A DNA stretch of 64,000 bases from the NCBI RefSeq assembly GCF_964204645.1, contig NC_134026.1, positions 12,485,950 through 12,549,949 of the forward strand, in the 5' to 3' direction. Below the pieces are notes generated by a model that was not told where the DNA came from, ran no database searches, and saw only the letters and a program-made list of their open reading frames with translations. The translations under genes were made by a program, and so were the position numbers. Numbering within the stretch: the stretch's first letter is position 1; every line of letters begins with the position of its first letter. This document shows positions 1-50,148 of the stretch, piece by piece. This DNA comes from Tubulanus polymorphus. Lineage: Eukaryota > Animalia > Nemertea.

Positions 1-1
1 T

Positions 2-3000
2 TTACATGTTTATAACACAAAATATAATAAGTTAACTAAATCAAAACCAATAGATGAAAATAATGTATCATATTATAAAGAACCAGATATTGAAGCATCG
101 AGTTATATCAAACTACCATTTAAAACTAATGCTGTTATAAATGTACAAAATGAAGATGATAAATGTTTTCTATGGACAATCATAAGTTGTTTACATCCAA
201 CAGAAGATATTACACATACTTATAGATTAACAAATTATAAACAATTTGAAAATAATTATAAGATAGATAAGTATCCTGTTATAATAAAAAACATCCCAAA
301 AATAGAAAGAGATAATAATTTAAGAATAAATGTATTTGATTTATTCAAATTACCAAATACAAAAGGTAACAATATAAAACATCATACATTAGAACCTTTA
401 TACCTATCAAAAGATTATGATTCAAATGATGTTATAGATATACTATATTATGAGAATCATTATATGTGGATTAAACAAATCGATTTATTTTTTAAATCAG
501 AAAATGATCACCATAAAATATATCTTTGTAGAAAATGTTTACATAAATTCAGTAATGAAAGTACATTATTAAATCATAAACAATTATGTGAAAATCATGA
601 TTATTGTAAATTAGTTTTACCAAATGAAAAGGATAAAATATTAGAATTCAAAAAATATGATTACAAAAATAAAGTACCATTTGTTATATATGGAGATTTT
701 GAATCATTAAATAAAGAACTAACTGATCAAGATAGAAAAGAAATATATTATAAGAGAAAGAAATTAAATTCTAATGAAAATGATTTTTCAGATGAACCAC
801 CAAAAACAAATACTATTAAAAAGATTCATCAATCAGCTGCAGCTTTCGGGTTATATATTAAATCTGATTATCCAGAACTAATTGAAAGTGAATATTATCA
901 TTATAGAAATGAAAATGTTATCAATCATTTTTGTGACTTATTAATTGAATATGAAATAAGATTTAGTAAATTATTGAATACAAATATAGTAATTATAATG
1001 ACAGAAGAAGATAAAGAAGCATTTGCGTTTGCAGGTAAATGTTATTATTGTGAAAAGACATTTAATTATAAAGATAAAAAAGTAAGAGACCATGATCATT
1101 TGAATGGAAAGTTTAGAGGCGCTGCACATGAGAATTGTAATTTACAAGCTAAGAAAATTAATTTTGTACCAGTTATATTTCATAATCTATCAGGATATGA
1201 TGCACATTTATTTATCAAACAGTTATGTCATAAAATAGAAGAAATTAATAATGAAATAGAAAGATTAAATTCAAATAGATCAAAAGATAAAATACGAACT
1301 TATAAATTTAGAATGTTAGCTAAAACATCTGAGAATTATATATCATTCCAATTTGGTTGCCTAAGATTTATAGATTCGTATAGATTTTTAAATAGTTCAT
1401 TAGATAACTTATCAAAATCATTAGTTGATGATGAATTAAAGATATTAAAACAACACTACCCAAATAATGATGATTTTCAATTAATGAGATATAAAGGAGC
1501 AATTCCATATTCATTTTATAAATCACATAATGATTTTAACATAACTGAATTATTAAATGAACAATTCTATGATGAATTAAAAAATGAATATGTTAAAGAT
1601 GAAGTATATAATAGAACATTGAATATTTGGAATCATTTCAAAATAGAAAATCATGGGCAATTCGTAGATTTATATCTAAAATCAGATGTATTATTATTAA
1701 CCGATATATTCGAAAGGTTTAGAGATGTAAACCTAAAATATTTTAACATTGATCCTTGTCATTGTTATTCATCACCAGGATTAACATGGGATTGTGGATT
1801 AAAATTTACAGATATAAAAATGGATTTGTTAACAAATATAGATCAATTACTATTATTTGAAAAATCTATAAGAGGAGGAGTTTCAGGTGTATTAGGTGAC
1901 AGATATTTCAATGTAAATGATAACCCTGGATATAAGTTATTATATATAGATGCAAATAATTTGTATGGTTGGACAATGATGGAACCACAACCATATGGAG
2001 TATTAGAAATAAGTGAAGTTTTACAGAATGAAAATAATGATAAATTTGATTGGAAGAAAAGAATCCTAGATATTGCAGATGATTCAGATACTGGTTACTT
2101 CTTTGTTGTAGATTTAGAATATCCTGAACATATTAAATTTAAATCTAGACATCTAGCTTACTGCCCAGAACATAAAACTGTAACTCATGAAGAATTATCA
2201 AATTACCAAAAAAGAATTAAACCCGAAAATCATATTCATACAGAAAAGTTAATGGTAACTCAAGAAGATAAATATAATTATGTAGTACATTATAGAATGT
2301 TGAAGTTTTATTTGAATCAAGGAATGGTTCTAAAAAAAGTACATAGATATATTTCATTTAGTCAATCTAAATGGTTAGAAAAATATATAGATTTTAACAC
2401 CAAACAGAGAACTGAAGCTAAAACTGATTTCGAAAAAGATTTCTTCAAGTTAATGAATAATGCATTCTATGGTAAGACTTGTGAAAATATTAGAAATAGA
2501 AATGATATTGAGTTAGTTAGTAATGGTAAAAGAATTAGACATTTACAATCATATCCTAAGTTCATTGGTAACAGAATATTTGATGAAAATTTAGCTGCAG
2601 TTAAAATGAGAAGAACATCAATGAAATTTAATAAACCGATCTATGTTGGCGCTTCAGTTTTAGAAATATCAAAATTACTAATGTATGAATTCTATTATAA
2701 TGTATTACAACCACTTTTTGGAGAAAAACATATAGAAATATTATATTTTGATACCGACAGTTACATATTAAAGATAAAAACTGATAACATAACAGATGAT
2801 TTAAAAACATTAAAACATCATTTTGATTTTAGTAACTATCCTAAAGATCATGAATTGTTTAGCAATGACAATAAAAAAGTTCCCGGTAAATTCAAAGATG
2901 AATTAGGTGGTGAAGAAATGATTGAATTCATTGGTATTAGATCTAAAATGTATTCATATAAAACTAAAGAACATGACGCTAAAAAGTTAAAAGGAATAAC

Positions 3001-3283
3001 AAAAAGTATAGTAGAAAAGAATATTCATTTCAAAGATTACATCAATTGTATATTCAATGAAGAAGTTAGAAAACATAAGATGAGATGTTTAAGATCTGAA
3101 GATCATGAAATGTTTATTGAAGAAATTGAAAAGATAAGTCTAAACCCATTTGATGATAAAAGATATATTTTAGATGATGGAATTCATACAGTTGATTATG
3201 GTTGCAATGTAGATGAATACTTAAAATTTAAAAGAGAAGAAACAAAAGAGAACGAGATAATGAAAAGAATTCTAACGTGTTAA
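2..3283 (+). CDS. Protein-primed family B DNA polymerase (pPolB), 5'-partial
   Basis: Frame is open from base 2. Motifs: YGDFES, FHNLSGYDAH, YIDANNLYG, KLMNNAFYGK, YFDTDS. Endonuclease VII-like insert CYYC..DHDHLNGKFRGAAHENCN. Upstream NVQNEDDKCFLW...NHYMWI resembles the vOTU-like domain of Polinton pPolBs. Confidence 0.96.
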   Translation, partial: LHVYNTKYNKLTKSKPIDENNVSYYKEPDIEASSYIKLPFKTNAVINVQNEDDKCFLWTIISCLHPTEDITHTYRLTNYKQFENNYKIDKYPVIIKNIPKIERDNNLRINVFDLFKLPNTKGNNIKHHTLEPLYLSKDYDSNDVIDILYYENHYMWIKQIDLFFKSENDHHKIYLCRKCLHKFSNESTLLNHKQLCENHDYCKLVLPNEKDKILEFKKYDYKNKVPFVIYGDFESLNKELTDQDRKEIYYKRKKLNSNENDFSDEPPKTNTIKKIHQSAAAFGLYIKSDYPELIESEYYHYRNENVINHFCDLLIEYEIRFSKLLNTNIVIIMTEEDKEAFAFAGKCYYCEKTFNYKDKKVRDHDHLNGKFRGAAHENCNLQAKKINFVPVIFHNLSGYDAHLFIKQLCHKIEEINNEIERLNSNRSKDKIRTYKFRMLAKTSENYISFQFGCLRFIDSYRFLNSSLDNLSKSLVDDELKILKQHYPNNDDFQLMRYKGAIPYSFYKSHNDFNITELLNEQFYDELKNEYVKDEVYNRTLNIWNHFKIENHGQFVDLYLKSDVLLLTDIFERFRDVNLKYFNIDPCHCYSSPGLTWDCGLKFTDIKMDLLTNIDQLLLFEKSIRGGVSGVLGDRYFNVNDNPGYKLLYIDANNLYGWTMMEPQPYGVLEISEVLQNENNDKFDWKKRILDIADDSDTGYFFVVDLEYPEHIKFKSRHLAYCPEHKTVTHEELSNYQKRIKPENHIHTEKLMVTQEDKYNYVVHYRMLKFYLNQGMVLKKVHRYISFSQSKWLEKYIDFNTKQRTEAKTDFEKDFFKLMNNAFYGKTCENIRNRNDIELVSNGKRIRHLQSYPKFIGNRIFDENLAAVKMRRTSMKFNKPIYVGASVLEISKLLMYEFYYNVLQPLFGEKHIEILYFDTDSYILKIKTDNITDDLKTLKHHFDFSNYPKDHELFSNDNKKVPGKFKDELGGEEMIEFIGIRSKMYSYKTKEHDAKKLKGITKSIVEKNIHFKDYINCIFNEEVRKHKMRCLRSEDHEMFIEEIEKISLNPFDDKRYILDDGIHTVDYGCNVDEYLKFKREETKENEIMKRILTC

Positions 3284-3312
3284 TCAAATTTTAATAAAAA
3301 TATGTTATTAAG

Positions 3313-3666
3313 ATGGAGAGTAAACAAGCGAACAGTGAGAAAAACAAATTATTTCTAGATAGAATAAAAGATACTACAAATATAAAATCTGTAGATTATA
3401 AGTTCAAAAAGTTAACAGAATTAACAATCCATAAGAAATATCTAATTACAAATATTGATACAGTTACTAATAACTATGGAGATAAATTAGTTATACACAT
3501 TGAATATGAAGGATTAAAAGGAAATACATAGTAATTCAGAACATATTTACCGGATAGATTTCATAGATTATCAAGTGAAGACTTAGAAGAATTATGTTCT
3601 GGAGATTTCTATTTCGTATACAAAGGTAAGAATGAAAAAGGGCACCATGAAATAGATTTCGAATAA
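3313..3666 (+). pseudogene. Small Polinton protein (117 aa in copy C) with premature TAG at 3529-3531
   Basis: Colinear with the intact ORF 59442..59795; function unknown. Confidence 0.8.
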
Positions 3667-3683
3667 GAAAATATGTAAAATAA

Positions 3684-4948
3684 ATGGCGGAATTAAAAGA
3701 ATACAGAAAATTTGTTGATTCTAGAAGACTTACAAATTATAAATCACATAATTTACTAGTACAATTAGATAGAGAATTCAAGAATTGTGTAGACTTAAAA
3801 TTAGTTAATATAAGTTTATGTAATTCCTTTTACAATATATCGAATAAAACTATTGAACATAGAGCCCTTTTTAATTTTTAATAAGAATAAAAATGAATGG
3901 GCCTATATATATTTGAAACAAGGGTTATATAATTTAGATACATTAGCACAAGAAATTAATAGAAAAGCCTGGCACAAATTAGGTAGTAGTTCTGGGTTTA
4001 GTGTAACCGGCTGGTTGTTGTATCGGCAGGCTGGCTGGGGAACTAGCATTTACACCAGCGGTACAGGATTCCATCCATCAGGAACAACAAGGCAGTTAAA
4101 CCTTATATGTACAATCTTTATTGCATCCCGGAATGAGAATGATTATCATAGCTTTACATAGTCTTTATATACAGAATCATGAGTATAATGTGAGAATTAG
4201 GTGTCAGACAAGTTGTAGACATCAGGACTCACAAACAAACACCTAGTGACATGTTTGAGAGACATTAATTAATTATCGATGAGCACTGACTATAGCTAAT
4301 TATTGTGAAAACATATTGAGTAATGTCACATGTTGATTACGACCTTAAAGCACATATTGACACTATAGTCATAAGTTATATTATATTATTATTATTATTA
4401 TTATTATGTAGTAGTAGAGCTATGAAATGTTATGAACTGTTCGATATGACATTGTAGATCTATATGATTACGAAATATGCAAATTATATCAGGGTGACAT
4501 TAGTATTAGATTTTTAAAAAGTGAGAGTTCTGATAGAATAAAGATAAGGTTGTCTAATAGTGAAAAACATAAATTTATGGTAAAAAAACCTATAGCTAAA
4601 CTGTTAGGAATTCTTCCAGATAGATCTTTTACAAATATTGACGCTACTACACCAAACTTAATACCTTACACACATTTTTATATTTATTGCAATTTAATCG
4701 ATCCTACAAAAACATTCGAAGCAACTAAAGATATAACTTGTAATTCTGGTTTATTAAACATTTTACCATTGAAGAATGTTAAAGAATTTGGAATGCAAAT
4801 AAATTATAATTTAACAGAATGTGATTTCAAACCATGCATTCCTCGTTTTAATAATTTTAGATTAGAAATTAGAAATCATAATGGATACTTAATTGATTTA
4901 AATAATTTCCCTGTAATTTATGAATTAGTTATAAGATGTAGAGAGTAA
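3684..4948 (+). pseudogene. Putative minor capsid (penton-like) gene, frameshifted and split by a solo LTR
   Basis: N-terminal FVDSRR..LVNISLCNSFYNI and C-terminal FYIYCNLI..LNILPL..FRLEIRNHNGYLIDLNN pattern typical of Polinton minor capsid proteins. Removing 4002-4499 restores colinearity with 59813..60571. Confidence 0.75.
4002..4499. mobile_element. Solo LTR (498 bp), probably Gypsy-type
   Basis: TGTAACC...GGTGACA termini, 4-bp TSD TTAG (3998-4001 and 4500-4503), absent from copy C, internal (TAT)n tract. Confidence 0.85.
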
Positions 4949-4965
4949 TTTTTTTCACTATATAA

Positions 4966-5307
4966 ATGAATATAACTGTTGGACCGAGTATATGTTTTGG
5001 GTTTGATTTTAAACATGGTAAAGAAATGAGAATTAAACTAAATGATGTAATTACTGATATAAAAAGTAAATCATTTAAAAATGCATCAATGATTGATAAA
5101 GAAAATTATAATATAGAAAAAGTAATTGATTTAATTAAAACGCCTTTAGAATATTATGAATTAAATGAAGATGGAATTATTGAAGATATCAAAAACATAT
5201 TATCCAAAATATATGATAATCATCAAAGTAGTAATGAAATAAATGTTGAATTAATCATAAATAAGATAACTAAATATTTTGAAGATAGTAATTTTTTTGA
5301 TAAATAA
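4966..5307 (+). CDS. Hypothetical Polinton protein, 113 aa
   Basis: Orthologue at 60589..60945 shares both termini; TAAATG start. Confidence 0.75.
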   Translation: MNITVGPSICFGFDFKHGKEMRIKLNDVITDIKSKSFKNASMIDKENYNIEKVIDLIKTPLEYYELNEDGIIEDIKNILSKIYDNHQSSNEINVELIINKITKYFEDSNFFDK

Positions 5308-5530
5308 ATGAGTGATAATAAGTGGATAATAACTGGATTATATAATGGAGCATTACTATCAGTTGGAACTGTTGGTTATTCAATGGTATTAAAAAAAAGT
5401 ATTCAAAATGGGAAGTGTTAATGTTGATAGATTAGACATCAATGATATTTTAAAATTAACATAAGCAGTTACTCTATCTAATTTAACTATTGATTATTTA
5501 GAAAAACAAAAATATATTCCTCCCATATAA
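5308..5530 (+). pseudogene. Small hydrophobic Polinton protein, frameshifted in an A-run
   Basis: Matches intact 73-aa ORF 60946..61167. Confidence 0.75.
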
Positions 5531-5555
5531 ATGCATAATTTTTTTTGCTAAATAA

Positions 5556-5978
5556 ATGGCTTCTGCAATTATAACTATTATAGGATCGGCAATTGTTAAC
5601 GCTTTGGCATTTACTGGTGGTGGATATTTATTTAAACATATTGATAAAAATAGTTCATTAGGAGAACAAAGAAGACATAACTTAGCGTTAGAGAAATACA
5701 ATAAAGCTGCAGAAGAATATAGAGAAAAAAGACAAAACTATATGGATTACATCAATAAAGAATTATATGATCAGAAGATTTCACATAGAGATTTTCAATC
5801 AGTTGATGATGCAATGAGTTTATATAACGCGGTAACAAATAAAGAAAAATTACATCTATACAAACCTAAATTATCAGATTATTATACCCCTAGTAAAGAA
5901 CAACAGAAATATGAAATAATTTGGATTTTAGGCGGAACAGTTATTGCTATATTTGTAGCATATAAATTTACTAATTAG
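5556..5978 (+). CDS. Polinton protein with N- and C-terminal hydrophobic segments, 140 aa
   Basis: Near-identical to 61192..61614; IIGSAIVNALAFTGGGYLF and IIWILGGTVIAIFVAY. Confidence 0.85.
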   Translation: MASAIITIIGSAIVNALAFTGGGYLFKHIDKNSSLGEQRRHNLALEKYNKAAEEYREKRQNYMDYINKELYDQKISHRDFQSVDDAMSLYNAVTNKEKLHLYKPKLSDYYTPSKEQQKYEIIWILGGTVIAIFVAYKFTN

Positions 5979-5998
5979 TAATTTTTATTTCTAATTAA

Positions 5999-6430
5999 AT
6001 GGAAGATAAAGTTGACAATATTGATATTATTCCTCATGATATAAATAAAACTAAATTAAAAACATATTTAGATAAACAAATATTAGAATTTGAAAGTGAC
6101 TTAAAGATAAAAAAGAAAAAATATTTAAAAAGTAAAATTATATATCTTATTATAAGTGGTTCGGTTACAATTAGTTCTGTAATAACATTTCTAGCAATAT
6201 TCAGTCCATTAACACCTTTAGCTATATCAATTGGTGTGTTAGGATTAAGTTCAAGTGTTTTAACTGGTATAAGTTCAAAATTGAATATAAAAAGTAATAA
6301 AGAAAAAATTAAAACTAATATAAAAGAAATTAATAAATTAAAGAATACACTAGATTATATAATAAGTTTAAATGGTCATATAACAGTTGAAGAACAAGAT
6401 AAATTATTAAAAGAATTAATAAATTATTAA
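5999..6430 (+). CDS. Two-TM / coiled-coil Polinton protein, 143 aa
   Basis: Near-identical to 61634..62068; two hydrophobic helices flanked by basic coiled segments. Confidence 0.85.
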   Translation: MEDKVDNIDIIPHDINKTKLKTYLDKQILEFESDLKIKKKKYLKSKIIYLIISGSVTISSVITFLAIFSPLTPLAISIGVLGLSSSVLTGISSKLNIKSNKEKIKTNIKEINKLKNTLDYIISLNGHITVEEQDKLLKELINY

Positions 6431-6446
6431 TTTTTTAATTATATAA

Positions 6447-7831
6447 ATGGCAGACAGTTTTCCAAAAGCTTTCCAATATAATAAATCAATTAAATATAAT
6501 ATTCCAGCAATAGATTTTAATAAAGATATTACATATAGAAATGAAGTTTTAGATTCATTAACTAATTTAGAAATTTATGTTACTGAAACTAATAATTTTA
6601 ATGCAAAGATGGAAAATATATTACATGTATATTTAATTAATTTTGAAAAATTGAAAGATGAAAAACAATGGTTATTAAAATCTAATATGAAGTATTGGCA
6701 GAACCAATTAAATCTTGCTGTTTATTGTGCAACAACAGGATGTGGAATTAGTTGGAATGATCATTTGAATAATTCTAAATATAAATTAATTCAAAGTTTA
6801 TTTAGATTTCATACATACTTTCAAATCAGAATAATATTAAATGAAGTAGAGTGCGCTTTACCAGGATCTAGATATTTTAAAGAATTAGATAATAATATTA
6901 ATTTATCAAAGTTTTATAAAATTTGTAATGAATTTAATATAGATATAAATAATTCTGATTTTAGAACAAAAATTGGAACAATAAGATCACTTCCTTGCCC
7001 TAAAAAGATTGCTGAATATTGTGCACTTCCCATACCATCTAATAGTTTGTATAATATCTATAGTAATAAATTAGGTTATGGTAAAATAGAAACTAAGGAT
7101 TTAGAAACATTAAATTTCAATAAATTACCGACATTTTATGATAATTTAAAACAAGAAAACAATAATGGTTGGGTTTATTTCATTTTAGAAAATAATGAAG
7201 GTTTTACAAAATCAGGTATACAAAGAATCAATCTATTAGAACTTATTTGATATGTATTCTAGGTGCACAAGTTGAAACAAGATCACCGATAATTGGAAAT
7301 TTAAATACATCATTCGATACACAAAAACAATTTAAAGTTTTATTTGAAGATTCCATACATAATGATAAAAATAGATCGATTCCAGAAAACATTGTAAGAT
7401 ATCAAAATTATTTAGATAAATCACATATTAGATTAAATTATTGTATAGGCCCTAATCTATTAATTATTTCTAATGATTTAGTACTAAAGATGGGAAACAT
7501 AATTGGTTATAATAATCTAATTAAAACTGCAACAATAAATAATCCATTTGGGTTAAATGATATAAATAAAAAGATTATTACTGCTCCAAAATTAATGGAA
7601 GGAGAAAAAAATAAAAAACACATTCAATCAACTGAAACTAAAACTAATAATATTACATTAAATAATGATTCTAAAATAAAAGATTACAATACATCAGAAA
7701 ATATAAGAACTGATATTATTCAACATGATATAATTAAAACTAATGATGATAATAAATCCCATGAAAATGCTAAATTAGCTATAACTTGTATAGGAATTGT
7801 AATCGGAGGAATATTATATTTTAAATTTTAA
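6447..7831 (+). pseudogene. Conserved Polinton protein (~460 aa, C-terminal TM), one frameshift near 7230
   Basis: ORFs 6447..7250 and 7247..7831 are one frame in copy C (QRINQSIRTYLICILGAQ); WQNQLNxAVYCATTGCGIS motif. Confidence 0.8.
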
Positions 7832-7847
7832 TTTTTTTATTATATAA

Positions 7848-9567
7848 ATGGATGTAGAAGGTGGAGAAGATATTCCATTGGATCCTTTAGATGAACCTGG
7901 TATAAGTGATGAACAACAACCTGATTTTAGTGAAACAAGTTTTAATGACGGTAATGAGCCAGAATATAATACTAATTTAGGTGAAGATGATGATTATGAT
8001 GATGATTATGATGGAATTAATTCCGAATTACGTGAAAAATTAAATAAATATTTAAAAGCTCCTGAAAGTGGTAGAATTTCAACTAGAAGAGAAAGAAAAG
8101 AATTTATGGAACTATTAGAAAAACAACAAGAAAAATATCCTGATAAACCTATGGAATTATATAGAATGAAATCTAGAGTAACAGATACAATTGTTAACGA
8201 ATTATTACCAAAAGTTGTAATAGATGAAATTGATACTGAAGATGTTGTAGAACAAATTTCAAGATGACCCATATTTCACGAATAATTCAGAATTTAAAAA
8301 TGATTCATGGTATTATAATCTTGAATTAAATAGGAATACTGTATCAATTCAATTATCTAGAATGGGTCAAGAAAATATTTTTGAACCTGGAATGCGAGCA
8401 TTATCTACAATTGAAGATTCAAAAGGTGGTAGAGAATTTCTCAGAATTATATGGAATGCAATCGATAGAATAAATGAAGAAGAACCAATTCCTAATATTG
8501 ATATAAACAAATATTCACCATTTAAAAATCCAAATCCAAATCCTACTGATCTTGATCCAGAAACTGATGAAGATTTTGCAAATCGATTAGATAAATTAAG
8601 ATCTTCAACGCCCGAAACATCGAGAAGAGACACTCAACAAATTGATAATGATTCAAGTCAATTACAATTAACATTTGAAAAACAAATTGATAGATTAAGA
8701 GATTCAGAAGAACTGATGAATAGTATATCAGATACATCTGGTTCTGAAACTGGAATAAATCGAATACAATCTTTACTAGAAAAAGGATTACTTGATTTAA
8801 CTGATGATGAATTAGAAGCATTTCCTGAACAAGCACGTAGAGAAATTAAAGGTATGCAAGAATCAGCTGGTGAAATTGCTAATACTAAGATGAGATTTTC
8901 TAAAATAACCATGTTAGAAAAAGAATTAACTAATGCAAATGAAGAATTAAAACAATTAGAATTAAATAGAGATCTTCAATTAATCGAGGAAGCTGATTAT
9001 GAAAGCAGAAAGTTAGCTTTAGAAAAAGAAATAGATGATTTAAAATATAACAAAGAATTACAGGAAAAAGAAAGAGATACATTATTAAAATCATATGATC
9101 TTAATCATATTAAAAAATTAAAAGTTATTTTTAAAGATTTGTTGATAAAACCAGATTCTAAAATATCATTGAAAGATAGAATAAAGTTATTATTTAAATT
9201 AGAAAGAATAACAATTCTTTCAATTCTAACAGCTGTAACTATGTTATTTACAACAATTGGTTTAGCAATATCAAATGCTTTAAAATCTACGCCTACTCCC
9301 AATAAACCGGATAAACCCCCAGATAATAGTTCTATACAAGATAAAGTTAAAGATAGTTTAAAGAAATTAGCAAAATATTTATGGGAACTATCTAAAAAAT
9401 CTGCTGCAGCTTTACCAGGAATTATTGCATCAATTGTTGGTTTTATATTGAAATCTGCAGGAAACATTATTAACTTTGCTGCTGAACATATTATTTTATT
9501 TTTAATTACAGTTGTAAGTGCTATTATTTTTGGGTTAGTGAATATGATATCAAAAAATATCAAGTAA
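7848..9567 (+). pseudogene. Large acidic / coiled-coil protein with C-terminal hydrophobic helices, disrupted near 8265-8360
   Basis: N-terminus matches 63423; C-terminus matches 43543-44332; lies directly upstream of the major capsid gene. Confidence 0.7.
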
Positions 9568-9607
9568 ACATGATAAAAAATAAATAATTAATTTTTTTGT
9601 TAAATAA

Positions 9608-10855
9608 ATGAGTGGGAGTTATATAAGTCCTTCTAAGATTTCTAGAATATCTAATGCTATTAAAGCAGAAAGATCACATCATATAATTACACATAATCCT
9701 TCTAACATTAATCCTGATGAAACTTTATATGTTAGAATTCCTCGATTAACATAAAATACTTTTTATGTTCCAAATAGTATTTATTTATCAGCCGATATAA
9801 AAGTAATCGGTAATAATAATAATTATGTTGTTGATAATGTTGGAAGGTATTTGATTAAAAAGTTAACAATAAAGATTGGTCCAGAAACAGTTTTCTCATT
9901 AGATGATTATAATTTATTTATGCATTATAAAGATTTATGGTTAACTAAAGAAAATAGAAATAATATGATATTTCAAGGCATCCAATCAGAAAACCAAAAT
10001 AAATTAAGATCAGAAGCTAATAGCGCAATATTAACTAATGCTGTAGATAAATTGATAAAAAGTATATATGGAAGCAAATATAAAATTCCATTAGACTTTG
10101 AATTGATAAATAACAATGCACCTTTATATAAATACGCAATTCAAGAAGACGTTATATTCGAAATAACATTTGCTCCTGTTAATGAAATTGTAATATCTAG
10201 CGTTAATAAAGATATGAGTTATAAATTATCGAATATATGTTTCGAATATGATACAGTAACTGATGAAAATATTTCAAGTATAATTCAAACTCAATACAAT
10301 CAAGGAGTTTCATTATTATATGATTATATTGATAAATTTAAAACCGTAACTATTAATGCAAATGATGAAATTATTAATGAGAATATTAACTTCCCAAGAA
10401 GATCTATTAAAGGTATATTAATATTTTTTACCATTGCAACATATACTAATTGTGCAATAAATGTTGATAATTATTATAATCCTGAAATAACAAAAGTAGA
10501 AATAACTATCGAAGGAATAGCAAATAAAACATTTTGTCAAGGAATGAGAATGATAGATCAATGGCCAGAAATTAGAAAACATTTTATGAATGAAAAAGTA
10601 AAATCATTTGAAAATTGTAATATTAATCAAATTGATTATTATACCGGTAATAAATATGCGTTATGGTTAGATTTTAGAACAACAGAGGATAATTCATTAC
10701 ATGGTTCTGGAAAAAAATTACAGAACACTAAAGATGGAATACAATTATTCATGACAAAGAAAAGAGGAGACAAAAATTTTAAAATGCACATTTATATTAT
10801 ATCTGACGCGCAATTAAATATTGTAAATTCACAATTACATAGTGTTATGTATTAA
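9608..10855 (+). pseudogene. Major capsid protein (double jelly-roll, inferred), premature TAA at 9753-9755
   Basis: ~415 codons; HNPSNINPDETLYVRIP, YKIPLDFEL, NFPRRSIKGILIFF, YALWLDFRTTEDNSLHGSG, DAQLNI pattern of Polinton MCPs; second copy at 44353. Confidence 0.85.
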
Positions 10856-10887
10856 AATTTTAACTTTAATAAAAATATATATAATAA

Positions 10888-11709
10888 ATGGAAGGAGGTA
10901 AAGTATATAAACATATTCCATACATCGATACACATGAAAATAATGATGGTTTATATTATGTAATACCTTGTAATATAGCTTTGATATTTGATCCTATTTT
11001 CAAAATTTATAAAACTAAACTAATAGAAATCGATAATAATAAAAGTGAAGTTGTTGATAATTTAAGTAATGTAATTGATAATAATGTAATACCTACTACA
11101 GTAATACCTACTACAGTAATACCTACTACATCTAATAATGTAATACCTACTACATATAATAATGCAATAATATTAAATGTTAGTGAAAATAGAAATTATT
11201 GTGATTATTGTAAAGGTGAATTTTCAAACGCTCCATCAAATTGGAATCAACATATGAATACAAATTCACATATTACTAATGTTATAGAACGTGTTGGTTT
11301 AAAAGAATTTATAGAACACCCATTTAGATATGTTACAAAGTTTGTTTCAAATCAAAAAGTAAATGGTAAAGAATTATATGAAGATTTTTTATTAGCAACA
11401 CCTAATAAAGATGAATTAGATTTAACTGATGCTAATAAAATATTAGGATCAAACATTGTAAATGAAATATTAGGAGCAAACACTAAAAAAGATGATAATG
11501 AAAATGGTGCCGTATGGCACCCACATGGTGATATAGTTACAGATATTGATATTAAAGATTATGTGGACACACTTTTGGTGAAAGATAAAGAAGAAACTTT
11601 TGATGATGCGGTAGGAAGGATGAATAAGTATAACAATAAAACAACTATTGATGATGATACGGTAGAGAGTTTGAATAAATTGTTAGGGTCTGATAGTGAA
11701 AGTGATTAA
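10888..11709 (+). CDS. Variable accessory protein with VIPTT repeats and one C2H2/matrin-like zinc finger
   Basis: Intact 273-aa ORF, TAAATG start, YCDYC...WNQHMNTNSH. Confidence 0.75.
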   Translation: MEGGKVYKHIPYIDTHENNDGLYYVIPCNIALIFDPIFKIYKTKLIEIDNNKSEVVDNLSNVIDNNVIPTTVIPTTVIPTTSNNVIPTTYNNAIILNVSENRNYCDYCKGEFSNAPSNWNQHMNTNSHITNVIERVGLKEFIEHPFRYVTKFVSNQKVNGKELYEDFLLATPNKDELDLTDANKILGSNIVNEILGANTKKDDNENGAVWHPHGDIVTDIDIKDYVDTLLVKDKEETFDDAVGRMNKYNNKTTIDDDTVESLNKLLGSDSESD

Positions 11710-11745
11710 GATATTAATTATATTTAATTCAAATAATAATATTAG

Positions 11746-12075
11746 TTGAAAATTGTATAAAATAATAGAAAATAAAAAGGGGGTTTTAAGTATTTAAGGT
11801 ATCTAATACATATCTAATACATATTATTTGAAAATACCTTAAATTATATTTCTTTTTTAAATTTATGTTGAAACCTCAGTAATAATAAATAACCTTTATT
11901 ATTTTCAAACTTATTCATACATTTGTTGAAAAAATAAAAATAAATTGGTTGAAAATTGTATAAATAATATTTATTTTAAAAAGGGGGTTTTAAGTATTTA
12001 AGGTATCTAATAGGGTAACAGGTATTAGGGTATCAGGTATTGGGGTATCTAATAGGGTATCTAATACATAGGTAT
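11746..12075. repeat. Direct repeats in the spacer between the convergent gene blocks
   Basis: TTGAAAATTGTATAAA..AAAAGGGGGTTTTAAGTATTTAAGGTATCTAATA occurs twice (~11746 and ~11949), plus several GGTATCTAATA/GGTAT units. Confidence 0.7.
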
Positions 12076-12083
12076 ATAAATAG

Positions 12084-12644
12084 TTATTTTATAAATCTAT
12101 ATTCATATGGAAATTGTAGTCTCAGTAATAATTTTGAACCTTTATTATTCTTTAATTTATTCATATATTCATCATATAATTCAGTAGGTATAATTTGATT
12201 TTCTTCCAATGATTGTTGCATAGATTTTCTATCTTTATTGTAGAATAAAACTAGAAATCTTATATTCTCCCTAAAGTCTTTAACAATTGAATTATATTTT
12301 TGATTTATTTTTGATTTCTCTAACTTTTGAATCATGTAAATTTGCGCAATCATCTACAATGAATAATGTATTTGATCCTTTATAAGTATCAATTGCTATT
12401 TTTATACAATTATCTAAATTTCTTTTACTGTTTTAGGATCTAATATAATAAACTTTTGTATCTTAACTATGCTTCTATTATATGTTTTATTCATTTCATA
12501 AGTGGGGCAGAATAATATTATATTATCAAAATGATTCTTATAAATAGTTTCTAACAAGTCTAATATGAAATGTGTTTTACCACAATTAGTTACACCAGTT
12601 ATTAACATATTATGCGGTTCAAATATAAATAAATCTTTATTCAT
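12084..12644 (-). pseudogene. A32/FtsK-like packaging ATPase, frameshifted and internally deleted
   Basis: Walker A GVTNCGKT; lacks the LAFSGRHFGITTWV segment present in copy B (47504..48064). Confidence 0.9.
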
Positions 12645-13755
12645 TTATTCTTTTAATTTTACTAGATAAAATCCATTCATTAAATTTATCATCGTATCCT
12701 TTATATTTCACCAAAGAATACTTTTTTCGTTTAAGAGTTTTTGTTTTCAATACTTTTTCTATTTTGTATTCTATTTCATCTGGATTTGGTACAAGTGATA
12801 ATTCTTGTTCATAGAAATAACCTAATATTTCTTCATCTTTTAGATCTTCTAATTTATAAACAAAAGGTTTAGTTAATATTATCTTTTTAATCTTGAATAT
12901 TTCTTCTGTAAAATTTGGGGTATAACCTTTATAAAATGTTTTTCTATATTTAGATATTCTTACGTGTTGTCCAATTTTAAATTTAGGTTCTCCGAAATCA
13001 TGTGTAACAAATGCTCCATATAAATTATTCCAAACTATTTCCGAATTATCTTCTTTTCTAGCTTGTATAGGTTTCATATTTATAGAACTATGTTTAGAAT
13101 TATTATAACCTTTCACTAAATCATCTAACACATCGATATATTTATATGTTTCATTAGCAGTAAAATATTTCCACATTCTAGTTTTCAATGTTTTATTAAA
13201 TCTTTCTATAATAGATGCTTTTTTATCTGAATGTGTTGAAAAATAATCTACATCGTTATCAGATAATAGTTTTTTAAAATGTTTGTTATAAAATTCCTTA
13301 CCTTTATCAAATTGTATCCTATCTGGAATAGCTTCTTTAAATATTGATTTAAAAGCATTTGTCACTTCTATAACAGTTTTATTTTTGATTGGAATTGACC
13401 ATGCGTATCTACTGAATATGTCTATAACATTCAGTATCCAGAAATATCCTTTGTTGTATTCTTCTAAGTTCTTCATGTCAATTAAATCAGCTTGCCATTG
13501 TTGATCGATATATGAAACCATAACTTTTCTTGTTAAATAAGTTTTATCCATTTTCTTGTGGATTTGATATGTTGGTTGATTTTGTAACCATGATTTTAAT
13601 TCACTATATTTTATATCACCGTGTGGGTGCCATACGGCACCACCACCATTTTCATTATCAGATTTAATTTTATCCCATAATTCTGAAACGTTAGAATATG
13701 ATACTTCACTTTCTGGGTTATAATATAAATCTCTTAAATATTGTTCTTTTTTCAT
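12637..13755 (-). CDS. Retroviral-like (rve) integrase with C-terminal chromodomain, intact
   Basis: WQADLIDM, IDIFSRYAW, IQFDKGKEF, IERFNKTLK (DDE); chromo-like YKIEKVLK..VKYKGYDDKFNEWI. Confidence 0.95.
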   Translation of the reverse strand: MKKEQYLRDLYYNPESEVSYSNVSELWDKIKSDNENGGGAVWHPHGDIKYSELKSWLQNQPTYQIHKKMDKTYLTRKVMVSYIDQQWQADLIDMKNLEEYNKGYFWILNVIDIFSRYAWSIPIKNKTVIEVTNAFKSIFKEAIPDRIQFDKGKEFYNKHFKKLLSDNDVDYFSTHSDKKASIIERFNKTLKTRMWKYFTANETYKYIDVLDDLVKGYNNSKHSSINMKPIQARKEDNSEIVWNNLYGAFVTHDFGEPKFKIGQHVRISKYRKTFYKGYTPNFTEEIFKIKKIILTKPFVYKLEDLKDEEILGYFYEQELSLVPNPDEIEYKIEKVLKTKTLKRKKYSLVKYKGYDDKFNEWILSSKIKRINE

Positions 13756-13761
13756 TCTATT

Positions 13762-14211
13762 TTAATCCATTAATATTAATCTTGGTTTATTTTCAATGAC
13801 TTTATCATTTGACTTATTTGGTATGATAGGTTTGTTGTCATTGGAATCATTATTGTTATCATCAGATTTGAATTTTGATTCATATATTACGCCGGAGAAT
13901 ATAATAATTGTGATTAACCCAATTGTAATATATAAGTAATTATGAGCTGTGCTGAATCTATTAGATGGATTATTATTTGAATCAATATCAGATAAAGTCT
14001 GTGATTCATTTATATCAGTTAATTTCTTTTTTTTAGCTTTTTTTAATTCTGAAGATCTTTTACCTAATTCTCTTGCCCATTTCATTTGTTTCTCTATATC
14101 AGTTAATTTCTTTTTCTTAGCTTTTTTTAATTCTGAAGATCTTTTACCTAATTCTCTTGCCCATTTAATTTGTTTTTCAGATCTAGCCTTTTTCTTAACG
14201 CTATCACTCAT
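13762..14211 (-). CDS. Basic protein with one TM segment; internal 21-aa tandem duplication
   Basis: Orthologue 48946..49314 has a single KQxxWARELGKRSxELKKAKKKKLTD unit. Confidence 0.8.
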   Translation of the reverse strand: MSDSVKKKARSEKQIKWARELGKRSSELKKAKKKKLTDIEKQMKWARELGKRSSELKKAKKKKLTDINESQTLSDIDSNNNPSNRFSTAHNYLYITIGLITIIIFSGVIYESKFKSDDNNNDSNDNKPIIPNKSNDKVIENKPRLILMD

Positions 14212-14806
14212 TTATTTTAGTTAATTTTTGTTCTGATTCATTTTCTGTTTCGACGTTTGGTTGTAGTACATCTGTTTCGTTCTTACCTGATTTATATTCC
14301 ATAGGCTTGATGTTCGAAAATGTAATGACACCAGTAGAAATTAATGTCATAACCGATCCTAATTGGAATGAAGCATAACCAACCCATTTTTGTAATAACT
14401 GTCATAACTAAGTAGTCATTTTTCAAATCACTATATAATTTATTTTCATCATCAATTGGTATTAACTGGTTACATAACTTAGAGTAACATTTGACAATAC
14501 CATCTGAAATAGAATCATTTATTCTAGCTAATCGAGCTTCTTCATAAATCTTAAAATATTTTATTACTTTATCGGGTTTCATAGAGTCTAGTTCTTGAAA
14601 AGTAATGATTCTATTTAAAACTCATTAGTTTTTCCACCGGCAATCAATAGTTCTATATGGTGCTTATAATATAAATAGTATTCATAATCTTTATTGTTAT
14701 TAACTTGAATAGAATTAGAAACAACTGTATCTTTATTATCACTAATACCCAAATCATCTAATGTCTTTTCAATATCAATACTATTCTTATTAGATTTCTT
14801 TGACAT
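14204..14806 (-). pseudogene. Conserved ~200-aa Polinton protein, frameshifted
   Basis: Fragments 14615..14806 and 14292..14582 match ORF 49307..49882. Confidence 0.8.
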
Positions 14807-15215
14807 TTATATTAGAGAAAAAAAGCAAAAAAAATATTATAAATATTCTTCAAATGATACTAGATAGTTAAAGTTAAAGAACTCTAGTATTGACTACTGA
14901 TACTAGCTATTTGAATTTAAAGAATATCTATTTGAATCTATTCAAAATATAAAGTATTCTCTTTTGAAAAGAAAGTATTAAAAATATAATAGAATTCACT
15001 AGCTAGTTGAAGTTATTGTTTTTTTATTATATTTTATTTGAATTAGGATTTAATATCTCACTACTATTGTCTATCTATAGGAGCGGTAACTATAACTGTC
15101 CAGATAAGTCATTTCGGATTCTCGATAATAAATCCTAAAACTGAAAATAAATTCAAAGAAACGACTGGTGGAAATATTATTTCATAAACACATATATTTA
15201 TTATGTAAATTTTAG

Positions 15216-15575
15216 CGATCGATAATAGAACAATGGAGAACAATAGAAATGCGGTCCAATCGGACCGGTTATTGCGCAATACACGGTTATATTTTTATCC
15301 TGTAAACTACAACATTCACACATAGAAATGTAACCAATCAATATTGAGCAGCTGTTTCAGTCAACAACGATCAATAATAGAACAATGGAGAACAATAGAA
15401 ATGCGGTCCAATAGGACCGGTTATTGCGCAATACACAGTTAACAGTAAACAATACAATACAGAACAACCGCCGCCATTAACAACGATCAATAATAGAACA
15501 ATGGAGAACAATAGAAATGCGGTTCAATCGGACCGGTTATTGCGCAATATTTAGTTAACAGTAAACAATACAATA
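15216..15575. repeat. Three ~74-bp direct repeats with hairpin core, separated by unequal spacers
   Basis: CGATCRATAATAGAACAATGGAGAACAATAGAAATGCGGTCCAATCGGACCGGTTATTGCGCAATA starts at 15216, 15368 and 15484. Confidence 0.9.
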
Positions 15576-15645
15576 TTAAAACAGATATATACAATCGGGA
15601 TTACATTTTTGATATCTATATTACAAAGACCTTCAGTGTTATAAT

Positions 15646-16112
15646 TTATAATTTTGTCCAGAATTCTTTAATTACTGGATTGTTTCCAATCATTTCTTCA
15701 ATTTCTGGTAAATATCTGACTACTTCACTAAATGCTAATCCTAATATTTTGAATTTTTCATATTTTATTAATCTACCTACTCTTCTCAGTTTTCTTTCAA
15801 AACCGGCACTGATATCTCCACTCATTTTCTTAGTTTTCGATTATTTGAGTCCCAACAGCAATTTAAGTCGCGTTGCTGGTAATTTTGGTAATTGTAGTTC
15901 GCGCGGTAATTGTTTATTATGTATTACATCACTCAGAGTTTTCACCATTTCTTGATGATAGTCCAAATGTTCTTATAATTTTGTGAAGTTTGTTCGTCAA
16001 TTACGAGAGTTTCATCCTCCATTTCTATTGATTCCTGAGTTTCACTATCCGTCGTTTCCGGTTCCTCATACGTTGGTTGGCTTAGAATTTCTGGTCGATC
16101 TCTGTATTCCAT
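15646..16112 (-). pseudogene. Acidic-N-terminus protein (~150 aa) with a putative 5' UTR intron
   Basis: My translation MEYRDRPEILSQ...HLDY...LAFSEVVRYLPEIEEM aligns to MSYASRSD...HLDY...LTFVDVVKYLPAIEKM in copy B. GTAAGT donor at 16196 and TTTTAG acceptor at 16119. Confidence 0.6.
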
Positions 16113-16514
16113 TTTAATCTAAAAGATGTCGTGAAAATGAATGACTGTACTTAAATATGTTTAAAGGTTTCCCTACTTCATAATATATGTACTTACATTT
16201 AGATTTAGAACTGTAAACTGTGTTTTGAGAGAGAATATCCAATACGTACTATGTATGTGAAAGTTGATTTCTAACTGCCGACGTGGCGCACGTTCAACCA
16301 AACTAATTACTTCTGCATGTTTGCCTGGATTGTAACAGATGTTCCTTTGTGATTAATCCTTTTCAACTGAAATAGCACATTCGATCAATATTCAAATGAG
16401 GTGCGCCCCATTCAACTGAATATGAAATACGGCACAGATGTTTTTGTAAACAACCTAATACAATTACATACAGGCGGTTTGACATAGATCGAGAGAAACC
16501 GGTTTTCTAAGCGT

Positions 16515-17166
16515 TTAACATTCAACGTATTTTTCATTATGTGTTGAGTTCCATAATTCAACAAATGTCTTTGCTTTATCCAGTTGATCTAAATATAACT
16601 GTATATCTAGTTTATTAGATTTAATTATATTTTCTTTCTTTTCAAGAGGCCTTAAATTCTTCCAGCACCAGATTAGCTTCTTATTATAATCATCACTCAT
16701 GTCAAATTTAGAAATCGGCAACATGATCAATATGAAAGTATTCACCGTAATTATCTATATTCATTTTATCATCGAATTGATATATTATCCATGATTTGAG
16801 AAATTCATCTGAACAACCCAATAGATTAGATAGTGTTTCTGAATGTGTTTCTTTGTTGAATAATTGTGTTAATCTAGATCTTAAGCATTGTTTCAATCTA
16901 AAATTAAGATCTGTTTGATATCTTTCTCTCATATATTCTGTCATATAATCATTATAAGCTTCTCTATTATCTTCTCGGTATTGTTTGGTATATAGTTTAA
17001 AACAAGTTTTACAGCAATATTGAAAACCATCTTTGCTAATCTTACGCTTACTAAATTCTGTTAAAGCTAATTTATCTAATTCACATTTAGAACACTTCTT
17101 GTAGTATATGTTTATAACGCCAGTGTTATTTGTAATATTTATAGTTTGTGGTTGTTCTGGTTCCAT
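16515..17166 (-). pseudogene. HNH endonuclease of the type common in large DNA viruses, with N-terminal Cys4 zinc ribbon; one frameshift
   Basis: KKCSKC..EFSK..KDGFQYCCKTC; LLGCSDEFLKSWI..F..M..DNYGEYFHIDHV / PISKFD...WKNLRPL..ENIIKSNK. Confidence 0.8.
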
Positions 17167-17243
17167 TTATTATATGTATTTTTTACTAAATTGGTTAATA
17201 TTTTAGAATCCTCTTCCATTTCTTCGACCAACGTCATCCTTTT

Positions 17244-17495
17244 TCATTCCTCGCTGCTTTTGATAAGTTGTTTCGATTCCTTGATATCAAATTCCTCAAC
17301 GTATTGTTCATTATTTGGATCATTATTCCATAATTCAATAAATTTCTTTGCTTTTGTTAACTGTTCTGAATATAACTGTAAATATTCTAGTTTCAATTTA
17401 TTATCTAAATGTGTTTTAGTTTTATTGTGTCTTGCTTTTTGGGATTTATCTATATTGATATTACATGTTGGGCAGTAGTACTTATTTGCTTCCAT
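17244..17495 (-). CDS. Short zinc-finger ORF starting inside the right TIR
   Basis: YYCPTC..KARHNKTKTH is the same as the pPolB N-terminus at 55349, here fused to an HNH-tail-like segment. Confidence 0.55.
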   Translation of the reverse strand: MEANKYYCPTCNINIDKSQKARHNKTKTHLDNKLKLEYLQLYSEQLTKAKKFIELWNNDPNNEQYVEEFDIKESKQLIKSSEE

Positions 17496-17970
17496 TTTAA
17501 TACTAATTTTTTTTTTTTAATTGATTTTAGAAGTTCAATGATTTATATTATGCATTATTTCAATCACACTTTACTAACACTTTTAATGTTTAAAAATCTA
17601 ACTCATACAAATATGAATATTGAAATAATGTTGTAAATATATACTTTTATATTGAATAATCTGTCAATTTAAATGTTATTCATTTATATGAATATTTTAA
17701 GAGTAATAGGGGTAATGGGCTTTCATATCAAAGGTTGAAAGGGCTAGTGAGTAAAAAATGAAAAATATGAAAATAATAATAATTTCTATTTGAATTAGGA
17801 GTGAAACTCATATAAAATGAAAAATAAATTCGAGTGTGCAAGAATCATTTTTCATTTTATATGAGTTTCGCTACTAATTCAAATAGAAATTATTATTATT
17901 TTCATATTTTTCATTATTTATGAGCTCGACCTTTCGACCTTTGGTATGAAAGCCCATTACCCCTATTACT
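17382..17970. repeat. Right terminal inverted repeat of Polinton A, ending in a 269-bp hairpin (17702-17970)
   Basis: Reverse complement of the copy C left end (hairpin interior differs); AGTAATAGGGGTAATGGGCTTTCATA...TATGAAAGCCCATTACCCCTATTACT. Confidence 0.9.
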
Positions 17971-43155: not shown

Positions 43156-43542
43156 AGTCACCGATTTAAAACCAAAGGCTTGATTTCGCTTACGGTTTAA
43201 CATTTTGTTATAAGATCGAAATTGAATAGTGAGGCCTAATCGTGTAAAAATACCTTTCTTTCTCAGATCGTGTCGATAGAGTACGAGTTCTAATCTTCGC
43301 GAACGATCTCCCACGCGCGCACGAGGTCTTCAGAACGAAACTAACTTCCGCTTCCGGGTGGATCCAGAGTTGATTAGGCCAACGGACCTGGTGTTTTGTT
43401 GCCTGGACCGCATTCCGCTCAAGCGAATACGACGACGAAAAGTTCTATCAAAATGATATATTATTTCTTTTCTTTTCTACTTTGAAATTAGAATTACTTC
43501 TTCGAAATTAGAATTACTTCTAGTATTTAGAAGTCAGAATTG

Positions 43543-44332
43543 CTAGAAAAAGGATTATTTGATTTAACTGATGATGAATTAGAAACATTTCCTGAACAAG
43601 CACGTTGAGAAATTAAAGGTATGCAAGAATCAGCTGGTGAAATTGCTAATATTAAGATGAGATTTTCTAAAATAACCATGTTAGAAAAAGAATTAACTAA
43701 TGCATATGAAGGATTAAAACAATAAGAATTAGATAAAAATCTTCAAGTAATAGAGGAAGCTGATTATGAAAGCAGAAAGTTAGCTTTAGAACAAAAAAAT
43801 AGATGATTTAAAACATAACAAAGAATTTCAGGAAAAAGAAAGAGATATATTATTAAAATCATTTGACCTTAATCATATTAAAAAATTAAAAGTTATTTTT
43901 AAAGATTTGTTGATTAAACCAAATTCTGAAATATCACTAACAGATAGAATAAAATTATTATTTAAATTAGAAGGAATAACAATTCTTTCAATTCTAACAG
44001 CTGTAACTATGGTATTTACAACAATAGGTTTAGCAATATCAAATTCATTAAAATCTACTCCTACTCCCAATAAACCGGATAAACCACCGACTGATAATAA
44101 TTCTATACAGGATAAAGTTAAGGATGGTTTAAGAAAATTAGCAAAATATTTATGAGAACTATCTAAAAAATCTGCTGCAGCATTACCCGGAGTTATTGCA
44201 TCAATTGTTGGTTTTATATTGAAATCTGCAGGAAGTATTATTAACTTTGCTGCTGAACATATAATTTTATTTTTAAATACAGTTGTAAGTGCTATAATTT
44301 TTGGGTTAGTGAATATGATAAAAAATAAATGA
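43543..44332 (+). pseudogene. 3' part of coiled-coil/TM gene
   Basis: Matches ~8776-9567, with stops and frameshifts. Confidence 0.85.
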
Positions 44333-44352
44333 TTAGTTTTTTTGTTAAATAA

Positions 44353-45595: not shown

Positions 45596-45627
45596 AATTT
45601 TACTTTTAATCAAAAAATTTATAATAA

Positions 45628-46806: not shown

Positions 46807-46822
46807 TTTAAAATATGAATAT

Positions 46823-47421: not shown

Positions 47422-47450
47422 AATTTGAAATAGTTTAAATTATTCTAATT

Positions 47451-48939: not shown

Positions 48940-48945
48940 CTTATT

Positions 48946-49916: not shown

Positions 49917-50148
49917 TTATATTAGAGAAAAAAGCAAGAAAAATATTATAAGTATTATAAAATGATACTAGATAGTTACAGTTAAAGAATTCTAGTATTA
50001 GTTATTGTTTTTTTAGTATTTTTTATTTGTGACAAAAAGTATTCTCTTTTTGAAAAAAATAACAGATTTTGAAAAAAATTAAAATAGAAATAATGGCTAG
50101 TTGAAGTATGTAATTTTTATTATATTTTATTTGAATTCTATTATTCTT

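Follow-up and report, generated by a model that had tools for sequence, protein, structure and literature searches.

The window analysed here, 64,000 nucleotides (nt) of the ribbon worm Tubulanus polymorphus (contig NC_134026.1, positions 12,485,950 to 12,549,949), holds three partial copies (A, B and C) of one Polinton, as revealed by self-comparison. Our main finding is that most gene starts of this Polinton lie within the hexamer TAAATG, preceded at short distance by a T-rich block, and that this two-part element corresponds to published descriptions of vaccinia virus late promoters. The element type, the motif, its spacing, its conservation throughout lineages of relatives and its back-to-back use are all observed directly. 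They suggest that a helper virus with post-replicative promoters of the poxvirus type probably transcribes the Polinton genes in the cytoplasm, and that the Polinton itself most likely works like an integrated virophage.

TAAATG at the gene starts

TAAATG had been proposed for 13 copy A starts and is present at every one of them (plus strand 3684, 4966, 5308, 5556, 5999, 6447, 7848, 9608 and 10888; minus strand 12644, 14211, 14806 and 17166), as well as at 59442 (+) in copy C, which had also been named; 12 of the 13 have TAAATG in B or C too. The exceptions reported at that time read as described: TAAAATG at 55349, ...TAGAATG in A and ...TAAGATG in B for the integrase, and ...TTAAAATG for an acidic gene. 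We found two more outside that list, 3313 (+) in A (TTAAGATG) and 63429 (+) in C (GTTAATG); the copy C counterpart of 3313 is 59442, that is, TAAATG. The idea that intergenic gaps are uniformly short stands for the plus strand (0-40 nt in all eight measured), but on the minus strand an 8-nt overlap and a 6-nt gap are accompanied by a gap of 77 nt. The starts of copy A are as follows (ORF, open reading frame; aa, amino acids):

3297..3315 (+), A-rich start of the small ORF 3313, reading TTAAGATG in A and TAAATG in C (59442)
3668..3686 (+), TAAATG of the A-rich class; the ORF, broken in A, has 254 aa in relative L003
4950..4968 (+), TAAATG of the T-run class; ORF of 113 aa
5292..5310 (+), TAAATG of the T-run class, its TAA doubling as the stop of the preceding ORF; the ORF that follows is broken in A
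5540..5558 (+), TAAATG of the T-run class; conserved protein of 140 aa, N terminus hydrophobic
5983..6001 (+), TAAATG of the T-run class; ORF of 143 aa, weak SLATT-like matches below cut-off
6431..6449 (+), TAAATG of the T-run class; conserved protein of 375-442 aa in relatives, which in A is split near 7250
7832..7850 (+), TAAATG of the T-run class; product acidic at the N and hydrophobic at the C terminus, the ORF in A split near 8267
9592..9610 (+), TAAATG start with 7-T run; major capsid gene
10872..10890 (+), TAAATG of the A-rich class; ORF of 273 aa
12642..12660 (-), TAAATG of the A-rich class; A32 ATPase, inside the 3' end of the integrase gene
14209..14227 (-), TAAATG of the A-rich class; basic ORF of 149 aa
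14804..14822 (-), TAAATG of the T-run class; the ORF, broken in A, has about 205-218 aa in close relatives
17164..17182 (-), TAAATG of the A-rich class; endonuclease VII/HNH-like ORF (phrog_1035, E 6e-11)

Curation of copy A gave 18 starts, 17 of them distinct (17495 and 55349 are the same terminal-repeat start). TAAATG is found at 13 of the 18, or 13 of the 17, compared with 6.1% of 412 non-start ATGs on the coding strand (binomial p ~1e-12) and with a TAA frequency of 8.7% in the same upstream windows (binomial p ~1e-10). The expected enrichment over a composition null was confirmed, as none of 100,000 shuffles reached 13 (mean 1.5, maximum 8).

Conservation of the motif among relatives

The capsid protein of the window has 918 homologs, and the relatives considered here comprise 83 loci, 80 kept of 180 confirmed in metagenomes and three in genome bins. 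When ORFs were called by a single mechanical rule and left unfiltered, the 30 loci having at least five ORFs fall into two distinct sets: five have TAAATG at 83-100% of starts and 25 at 0-17%. For curated counts, loci were grouped after the motif and the tree had been seen, and 12 ORFs were dropped (inner pieces of broken genes or unsupported opposite-strand frames). These counts gave TAAATG at 53/58 starts in the window's clade, 31/32 in a second lineage together with locus L070, and 2/200 in 50 other loci. They leave out the near-duplicates L002, L013 and L062, the fragment L075, and L014, a broken member of the window's clade that has 0/2 by the rule and in which the TAAATG of the capsid gene is followed by an immediate stop. 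Taken together, the motif lineages (two to three capsid lineages) have TAAATG at 84 of 90 starts and, with copy A included, TAAAT overlaps the start codon at 97 of 107; such counts are not independent, because related loci share motif state. Among motif loci of 32-44% GC, 44 of 46 starts are TAAATG, as opposed to none of 37 in fifteen control loci of at most 39% GC (p 1e-21). The AT-rich control loci instead have A at -3 in 32 of 37 starts, and their upstream DNA is 15% GC versus 23% in motif loci.

The motif has been kept by two groups with capsids 33-38% identical, while sister lineages between them are without it. On a quick tree of 29 rows the motif state changes three times, with only one change forced by well-supported branches, so a single origin of the motif followed by losses is compatible with the tree; a 70-row tree is also a quick tree. 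The presence of the motif both in lineages this distant and at genes known from a single locus, such as the kinase of L003, requires selection over long times.

Shape of the start element

The 97 TAAATG starts share much more than the hexamer. T occupies positions -14, -13 and -12 from the ATG in 72, 74 and 85% of them, and G+C rises from 2-8% at -16..-12 to 33-36% at -9/-8, consistent with a free spacer of roughly 6 nt. At -13, that is, 10 nt before TAAAT, T is present in 72/97 starts against a background of 38%, the peak (85%) lying one base nearer. In the relatives, TTT at -14..-12 accompanies 44 of 84 starts and only 8 of 126 non-start TAAATG sites of the same loci. The T peak holds in the second lineage, in head-to-head gene pairs and even inside the upstream gene (T at -12 in 84% of 13). 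Of ten exceptions, eight still have TAAAT or TAAAAT within 12 nt. Head-to-head starts are TAAATG in 29 of 30 cases. Among these 15 pairs, ten have their starts 14-30 nt apart and three overlap; six, with starts 28-30 nt apart, are arranged around one central A-then-T block that could serve both directions.

This geometry can be compared with vaccinia virus (statements on published work refer, here and below, to the accessible parts of the sources). Vaccinia late promoters have TAAAT(G) over the start codon and a conserved T 10 nt upstream among other Ts, whereas in intermediate promoters TAAA is accompanied, 15-19 nt upstream, by a stretch richer in A/T (PMC11980589). The late core is located about 6 nt upstream of the initiator, and TAAAAT is the initiator of the intermediate gene G8R (PMC12722222). 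Poxviruses also have bidirectional promoters, which are among the most conserved poxvirus sequences (PMC3185747). The original comparison of the motif with vaccinia late promoters is upheld: the element is two-part and lineage-specific, has the published spacing with the strongest T one base nearer, and is no artefact of AT content.

Within copy A, starts are of two classes. The capsid block has a run of 6-7 Ts, whereas at the ATPase, 3684, 10888, 14211, 17166 and pPolB the upstream block is A-rich and contains one or few Ts. Among the four closest relatives, at least six Ts at -16..-10 are present in 12/12 starts of the T-run group and 0/8 of the A-rich group. This split, defined after the fact, resembles by analogy the distinction between late and intermediate promoter classes.

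Poxvirus genes have one more signal, the early terminator TTTTTNT, which we considered as evidence and rejected. It is depleted in coding sequences of the window's clade (observed/expected ratio, O/E, 0.34) and follows 0/13 convergent stops; since T6 (0.27) and A7 (0.35) are depleted alike, the depletion represents general avoidance of homopolymers. Long A/T runs are in fact about threefold depleted in these coding sequences relative to codon shuffles, the A7 and T6 values for AT-rich control Polintons being 0.66 and 0.72. Avoidance of AATAAA was also discarded as a marker of nuclear expression, its O/E of 0.85-1.06 in all four groups providing no discrimination.

Gene content and the replication, integration and acidic genes

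The element is a Polinton according to four tested hallmark genes, those for protein-primed DNA polymerase B (pPolB), rve integrase, A32 ATPase and double-jelly-roll capsid:

2..3283 (+), copy A gene for protein-primed DNA polymerase B, including an endonuclease VII domain (PF03175 E 4.6e-14, PF02945 E 9.7e-06); start outside the window
55325..55351 (+), pPolB start, located within the terminal repeat and made up of TTTTAATAAAA block, spacer and TAAAATG (intermediate-like initiator)
9608..10855 (+), major capsid protein, double-jelly-roll; one in-frame stop at 9752 in A
12084-12644 (-), A32-type packaging ATPase (PF04665 E 1.3e-05 in A, frameshifted, and 1.1e-10 in B)
12637..13755 (-), rve integrase with chromodomain (PF00665 E 1e-09, PF00385 E 3e-04); start TAAAATAGAATG
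15045..16510 (-), cassette of raised GC content (33%) that holds an acidic ORF at 16112 and, by prediction, a leader intron of 78 nt (16196-16119, GTAAGT...TCTTTTAG)

The capsid was identified through the model of a 76%-identical relative (predicted local distance difference test score, pLDDT, 85.6), which matches the capsids of iridovirus, Paramecium bursaria chlorella virus 1 (PBCV-1) and mavirus with a best E of 6.5e-16; the mavirus capsid ranks 39th by fold, at 11% identity. The pPolB of copy C is broken by frameshifts, and the same pPolB start recurs at 17495 (-) and 52260 (-). Scans of the ORFs against Pfam, NCBIfam and PHROGs gave no match to an adenovirus-type cysteine protease, several ORFs being unassigned or broken, and found no RNA polymerase or late-factor family; besides pPolB, no ORF exceeds about 570 codons. 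For the conserved protein that starts at 6447, the 442-aa form has no match in PDB sequences, the Atlas, or PDB and BFVD folds.

Some relatives carry other genes. In the second motif lineage, L031 has a different pPolB (8186-12253, 1355 aa) without an endonuclease VII match, and in the non-motif relative L052 a helicase gene of similar size (9970-13596) occupies the corresponding place. The close relative L003 encodes a deoxynucleoside kinase (10340-10981; PF01712, E 1.7e-31) that has a T-run TAAATG start of its own and three further homologs 60-67% identical.

The proposal that replication and integration genes have host-compatible starts was not supported by closer comparison. The integrase starts exactly at TAAATG in three of seven members, and the other four have TAAAT or TAAAAT within 12 nt. 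As for pPolB, its TAAAATG shares the TTTTAATAAAA block, at the same spacing, with the TAAATG starts 59442 and 50840, and its TAAAAT is identical to the intermediate initiator of vaccinia G8R (PMC12722222). The only good host-type candidate is the acidic gene, which, judging by its predicted intron, is likely a nuclear gene of RNA polymerase II (Pol II). Its donor- and acceptor-like words, GTAAGT and TCTTTTAG, are kept in A and B. The diverged, higher-GC cassette with the predicted leader intron follows the end of the endonuclease gene in both copies (15045-16510 in A, about 50970-51850 in B). Contigs of run X8, of a kind not on record, cover 15640-15982. In four small contig sets under the same species label, also of a kind not on record, capsid, ATPase and pPolB are almost uncovered and the predicted intron is unbridged; these sets carry no weight either way.

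Alternative explanations

Could the signal be anything other than a promoter? That it arose by chance in AT-rich, tightly packed DNA, as might be supposed for an element of 23-25% GC, is refuted by the shuffle and binomial tests and by the contrast between motif loci and controls whose upstream DNA is even more AT-rich. It is also very improbable that the hexamer belongs to the preceding gene as its poly(A) signal and, the genome being compact, overlaps the following start. AATAAA is present at 37/97 starts and ATTAAA at 9/97, and in the motif lineages AATAAA comes after 19 of 49 tandem stops; yet at head-to-head starts, where no gene upstream runs in the same direction, TAAATG is found in 29 of 30 cases with AATAAA in only 7 of 29, AATAAA follows none of 13 convergent stops, and coding sequences do not avoid it (O/E 0.96). 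The same 29 of 30 disfavour a stop-start arrangement. A translational signal, either an in-frame stop just before the ATG or a special host initiation context, is improbable, though somewhat less so. TAA is in frame with the ATG by construction, and it really ends the upstream gene at 5308 and, in relatives, at 2 of 42 tandem TAAATG starts. However, neither TAG nor TGA ever replaces it (0/18 curated copy A starts), the upstream T peak stays at its fixed distance even within the coding sequence of a neighbour, and the eight exceptions that retain the motif nearby have it out of step with the ATG. The non-Polinton ORFs of the window have TAAATG at 1 of 16, a weak control in that many of these are not true starts.

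If the element is a promoter, it might be a compact nuclear one, read by host Pol II and TATA-binding protein with an activator from the element or from a nuclear DNA virus, and no cytoplasmic helper would be needed. We regard this as unlikely, albeit the most serious of the alternatives. TATAAA is present at 25/97 starts, several conserved ORFs are without known function, so that one of them may encode such an activator, and the element both integrates and carries a gene with predicted spliceosomal signals. In addition, a herpesvirus-like region has been described in a ribbon worm genome (10.1101/2025.04.19.649669). On the other hand, the motif is fixed to the ATG, leaving no room for a leader, and head-to-head starts are 14-30 nt apart or overlap. 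A TATA box is usually about 25-30 nt before the transcription start, a distance that would here put the start of transcription inside the gene. Moreover, sister Polintons with the same gene set use ordinary starts with A at -3. Finally, the promoters might be relics of a helper-dependent ancestor, out of use in present copies that spread by other means. All three copies in the window are broken and host copies differ by up to 10% and more, in line with this view, but decay of single integrated copies is expected under any model, and the long selection implied by distant capsids and single-locus genes makes it about as improbable as a translational signal, if not slightly more so.

Proposed transcription by a helper virus

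Neither a helper nor RNA was found, so transcription by a helper is an inference. In the scheme that we consider likely, the T run, short spacer and TAAATG would form a promoter for the RNA polymerase of a large DNA virus infecting the same cell. TAAATG genes would stay silent in the nuclear provirus, and once a helper has infected the cell, its factory would be the place where free copies are transcribed. Transcription would begin in the AAA of TAAAT, and slippage would add a 5' poly(A) leader in place of a 5' untranslated region. The T-run starts of the capsid block would be late-like and the A-rich starts (ATPase, pPolB, endonuclease) intermediate-like, and expression by host Pol II would be confined to the acidic gene with its intron. 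The proposal leaves unexplained how an integrated copy first exits the nucleus.

Several observations speak against this scheme or weaken it. The vaccinia match is to a published description rather than to a matrix computed from poxvirus DNA, and 46 of the 97 starts also read AATAAA or ATTAAA and 25 TATAAA. The two-class split, having been defined on copy A, blurs in farther relatives (capsid starts have 2-5 Ts in L006-L009 and L012), and the pPolB start of L031, which belongs to another polymerase type, is without the motif. Several ORFs have no assigned function, leaving room for an element-encoded activator. No helper turned up in IMG/VR scans. Those with the capsid and the 442-aa protein yielded no relatives, and a bidirectional promoter-pattern scan gave 90 stretches, none of which reached 70% TAAATG starts among the 71 with at least five ORFs. 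In the 90 stretches together, 113 of 755 ORF starts are TAAATG, 13 of the 113 having the TTT core; gene families were checked in four of these loci, one of which is a giant-virus bin. A search of IMG/VR with the L003 deoxynucleoside kinase gave a single locus with TAAATG at 1 of 13 starts, and no homolog of this kinase is named as poxviral. A poxvirus of marine invertebrates was not found in the literature searched. The helper may not need to be a true poxvirus, and TAAATG accounts for as many as 4 of 6 starts in some IMG/VR loci that resemble large eukaryotic viruses.

A broader picture, which we offer tentatively and think somewhat less likely to be right than wrong, is that several integrated animal Polinton lineages live as virophages on poxviruses or close poxvirus kin that are still to be discovered in marine invertebrates. 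Such lineages would have copied the intermediate- and late-like promoters of the helper, would keep one intron gene for nuclear latency, and would exist beside host-transcribed sisters; lifestyle and helper class could then be read from six bases around start codons.

Relation to known systems

Polintons, or Mavericks (Polintoviricetes; 'adintoviruses', 10.1101/697771; nematode Polintons, 10.1101/2023.08.22.554363), share with the window element pPolB, rve integrase with chromodomain, A32 ATPase, double-jelly-roll capsid, terminal repeats and multiple copies in an animal genome. What differs here is the near-universal poxvirus-type start element and the failure to find a protease; sister lineages are without the motif. 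The word 'promoter' is absent from the accessible text of both these preprints, and likewise from that of the egovirus and polisuvirus-mosaicism preprints. We found no report of poxvirus-type promoters in Polintons in the open literature searched, a search that left most subscription journals outside. The poxvirus-type start element is real, strong and apparently unreported.

Vaccinia late and intermediate promoters, as well as those of salmon gill poxvirus, have in common with the element TAAAT over the ATG, a T peak about 10 nt upstream, a spacer of about 6 nt, the TAAAAT and A-rich variants, and back-to-back use (PMC11980589; PMC12722222; PMC4542343). By contrast, the bearer here is a 17-kb integrating element with no RNA polymerase detected and with the motif at about 90% of genes, the likeness being one of sequence. 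A precedent is provided by the Polinton-like viruses (PLVs) AHEV_PLV1/2 and CBEV_PLV1, found in entomopoxvirus occlusion bodies (Barth et al. 2024, PMC11296320). They are Polinton-related and proposed to be poxvirus parasites, as is the case here. However, they were found with virus particles in moths, have a protease and lack rve integrase, whereas the window element, from a probably marine animal, bears an integrase and is linked to poxviruses by its promoters, with no helper seen. In the accessible text of that study the terms promoter, motif and transcription are absent, and its supplement, as far as accessible, has TAAATG only twice, in repeat tables.

Borrowing of helper promoters by small capsid-coding elements, as proposed here, is familiar from the virophages mavirus and Sputnik, which use helper late promoters, and from the PLV Gezel-14T, which uses the early motif AAAATTGA (10.1101/2022.07.28.501842). 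In those systems, unlike ours, the hosts are protists, the helpers are of mimivirus type, the motifs are different, and helper dependence was shown by culture. Mavirus, like the window element, integrates by an rve integrase. The yeast cytoplasmic linear elements pGKL1/2 are pPolB replicons that are not known to carry an integrase. They have a TAAAAT initiator and 5' poly(A) leaders (PMC12722222), but, unlike the window element, encode their own RNA polymerase (PMC6211774) and have no capsid (on its loss see PMC10328495). African swine fever virus also combines a cytoplasmic viral polymerase with slippage at the start site; its late initiator TATA and its median late leader of 9 nt before the ATG do not match the window motif (PMC7163114).

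These comparisons bear on long-standing open questions, namely by what means Polintons, lacking an RNA polymerase, express virion genes, and whether those of animals are viruses in their own right or virophages. The TAAATG state provides a sequence marker that splits close Polinton relatives into two classes. If true, dependence on a helper would extend the mavirus-type integrated virophage to animals and tie it to poxvirus-type transcription, and it would predict pox-like viruses in invertebrate groups for which we found none described.

Copies, ends and surroundings

The three copies are mostly 83-95% identical, with one variable stretch at 74%, and differ from their surroundings in composition (23-25% GC versus 36-42% in the flanks; 25% versus 36% for copy A and its flank). 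All three are broken:

1..17970, Polinton copy A; left part cut by the window edge
about 43540..52491, Polinton copy B; left part missing, many genes broken
54811..64000, Polinton copy C; runs off the window
17382..17970 (-), terminal repeat of copy A; ends in a 269-nt imperfect palindrome beginning AGTAATAGGG

The terminal repeat of A matches the reverse complement of 55069-55462, at the left end of C, at 92%. The right ends of A and B are both the reverse complement of the C left end (92%), all three ends begin AGTAATAGGG, and no copy has both ends in the window. The 269-nt palindrome of copy A folds at -98.9 kcal/mol (z -24.6). The ends 17702-17970, 52340-52491 and 54811-55142 are long imperfect palindromes of about 270, 150 and 330 nt with a common outer stem and inner parts that differ in length and sequence.

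In 1.9 Gb of raw DNA reads produced by another study under the same species label, the element is covered several hundred-fold, and behind 17970 there are 1421 reads with loose ends that are unlike one another; this depth, together with the unlike flanks, shows that the Polinton is multi-copy. For runs X1, X2, X3 and X5 over positions 1-20000, the X1/X2 ratio of summed contig depth is 3-5 on host flank bins and at 15342-16675, and mostly 10-60 on bins of the element core, with X5 resembling X2/X3; summed depth is no copy number. The X1 excess over the core may reflect either library bias or extra non-integrated copies in one sample.

Copy A has an insertion at 3969-4504 that is not in C, and reads and contigs skip 3997-4500. 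The same 25-nt GC-rich hairpin occurs within two unrelated copy A genes, at 11506-11530 (+) and 13617-13641 (-), and these are its only places in the window at up to three mismatches. No tRNA and no Rfam family were found in the window. Between the Polinton copies lie gypsy remnants, a broken Helitron whose named relatives come from oyster, clam, clam-symbiont bins and springtail, and a 2.6-kb element with 234-nt inverted repeats (24998-27577, 39425-42122, 19265-21920). The origins of the Helitron relatives fit an animal host, probably a marine invertebrate. A 195-aa ORF without a Pfam match (30540-31127, minus strand), itself with a TAAATG start, is situated just outside an inverted repeat (31136-38101) and is mirrored at the other arm at 38227 (+).

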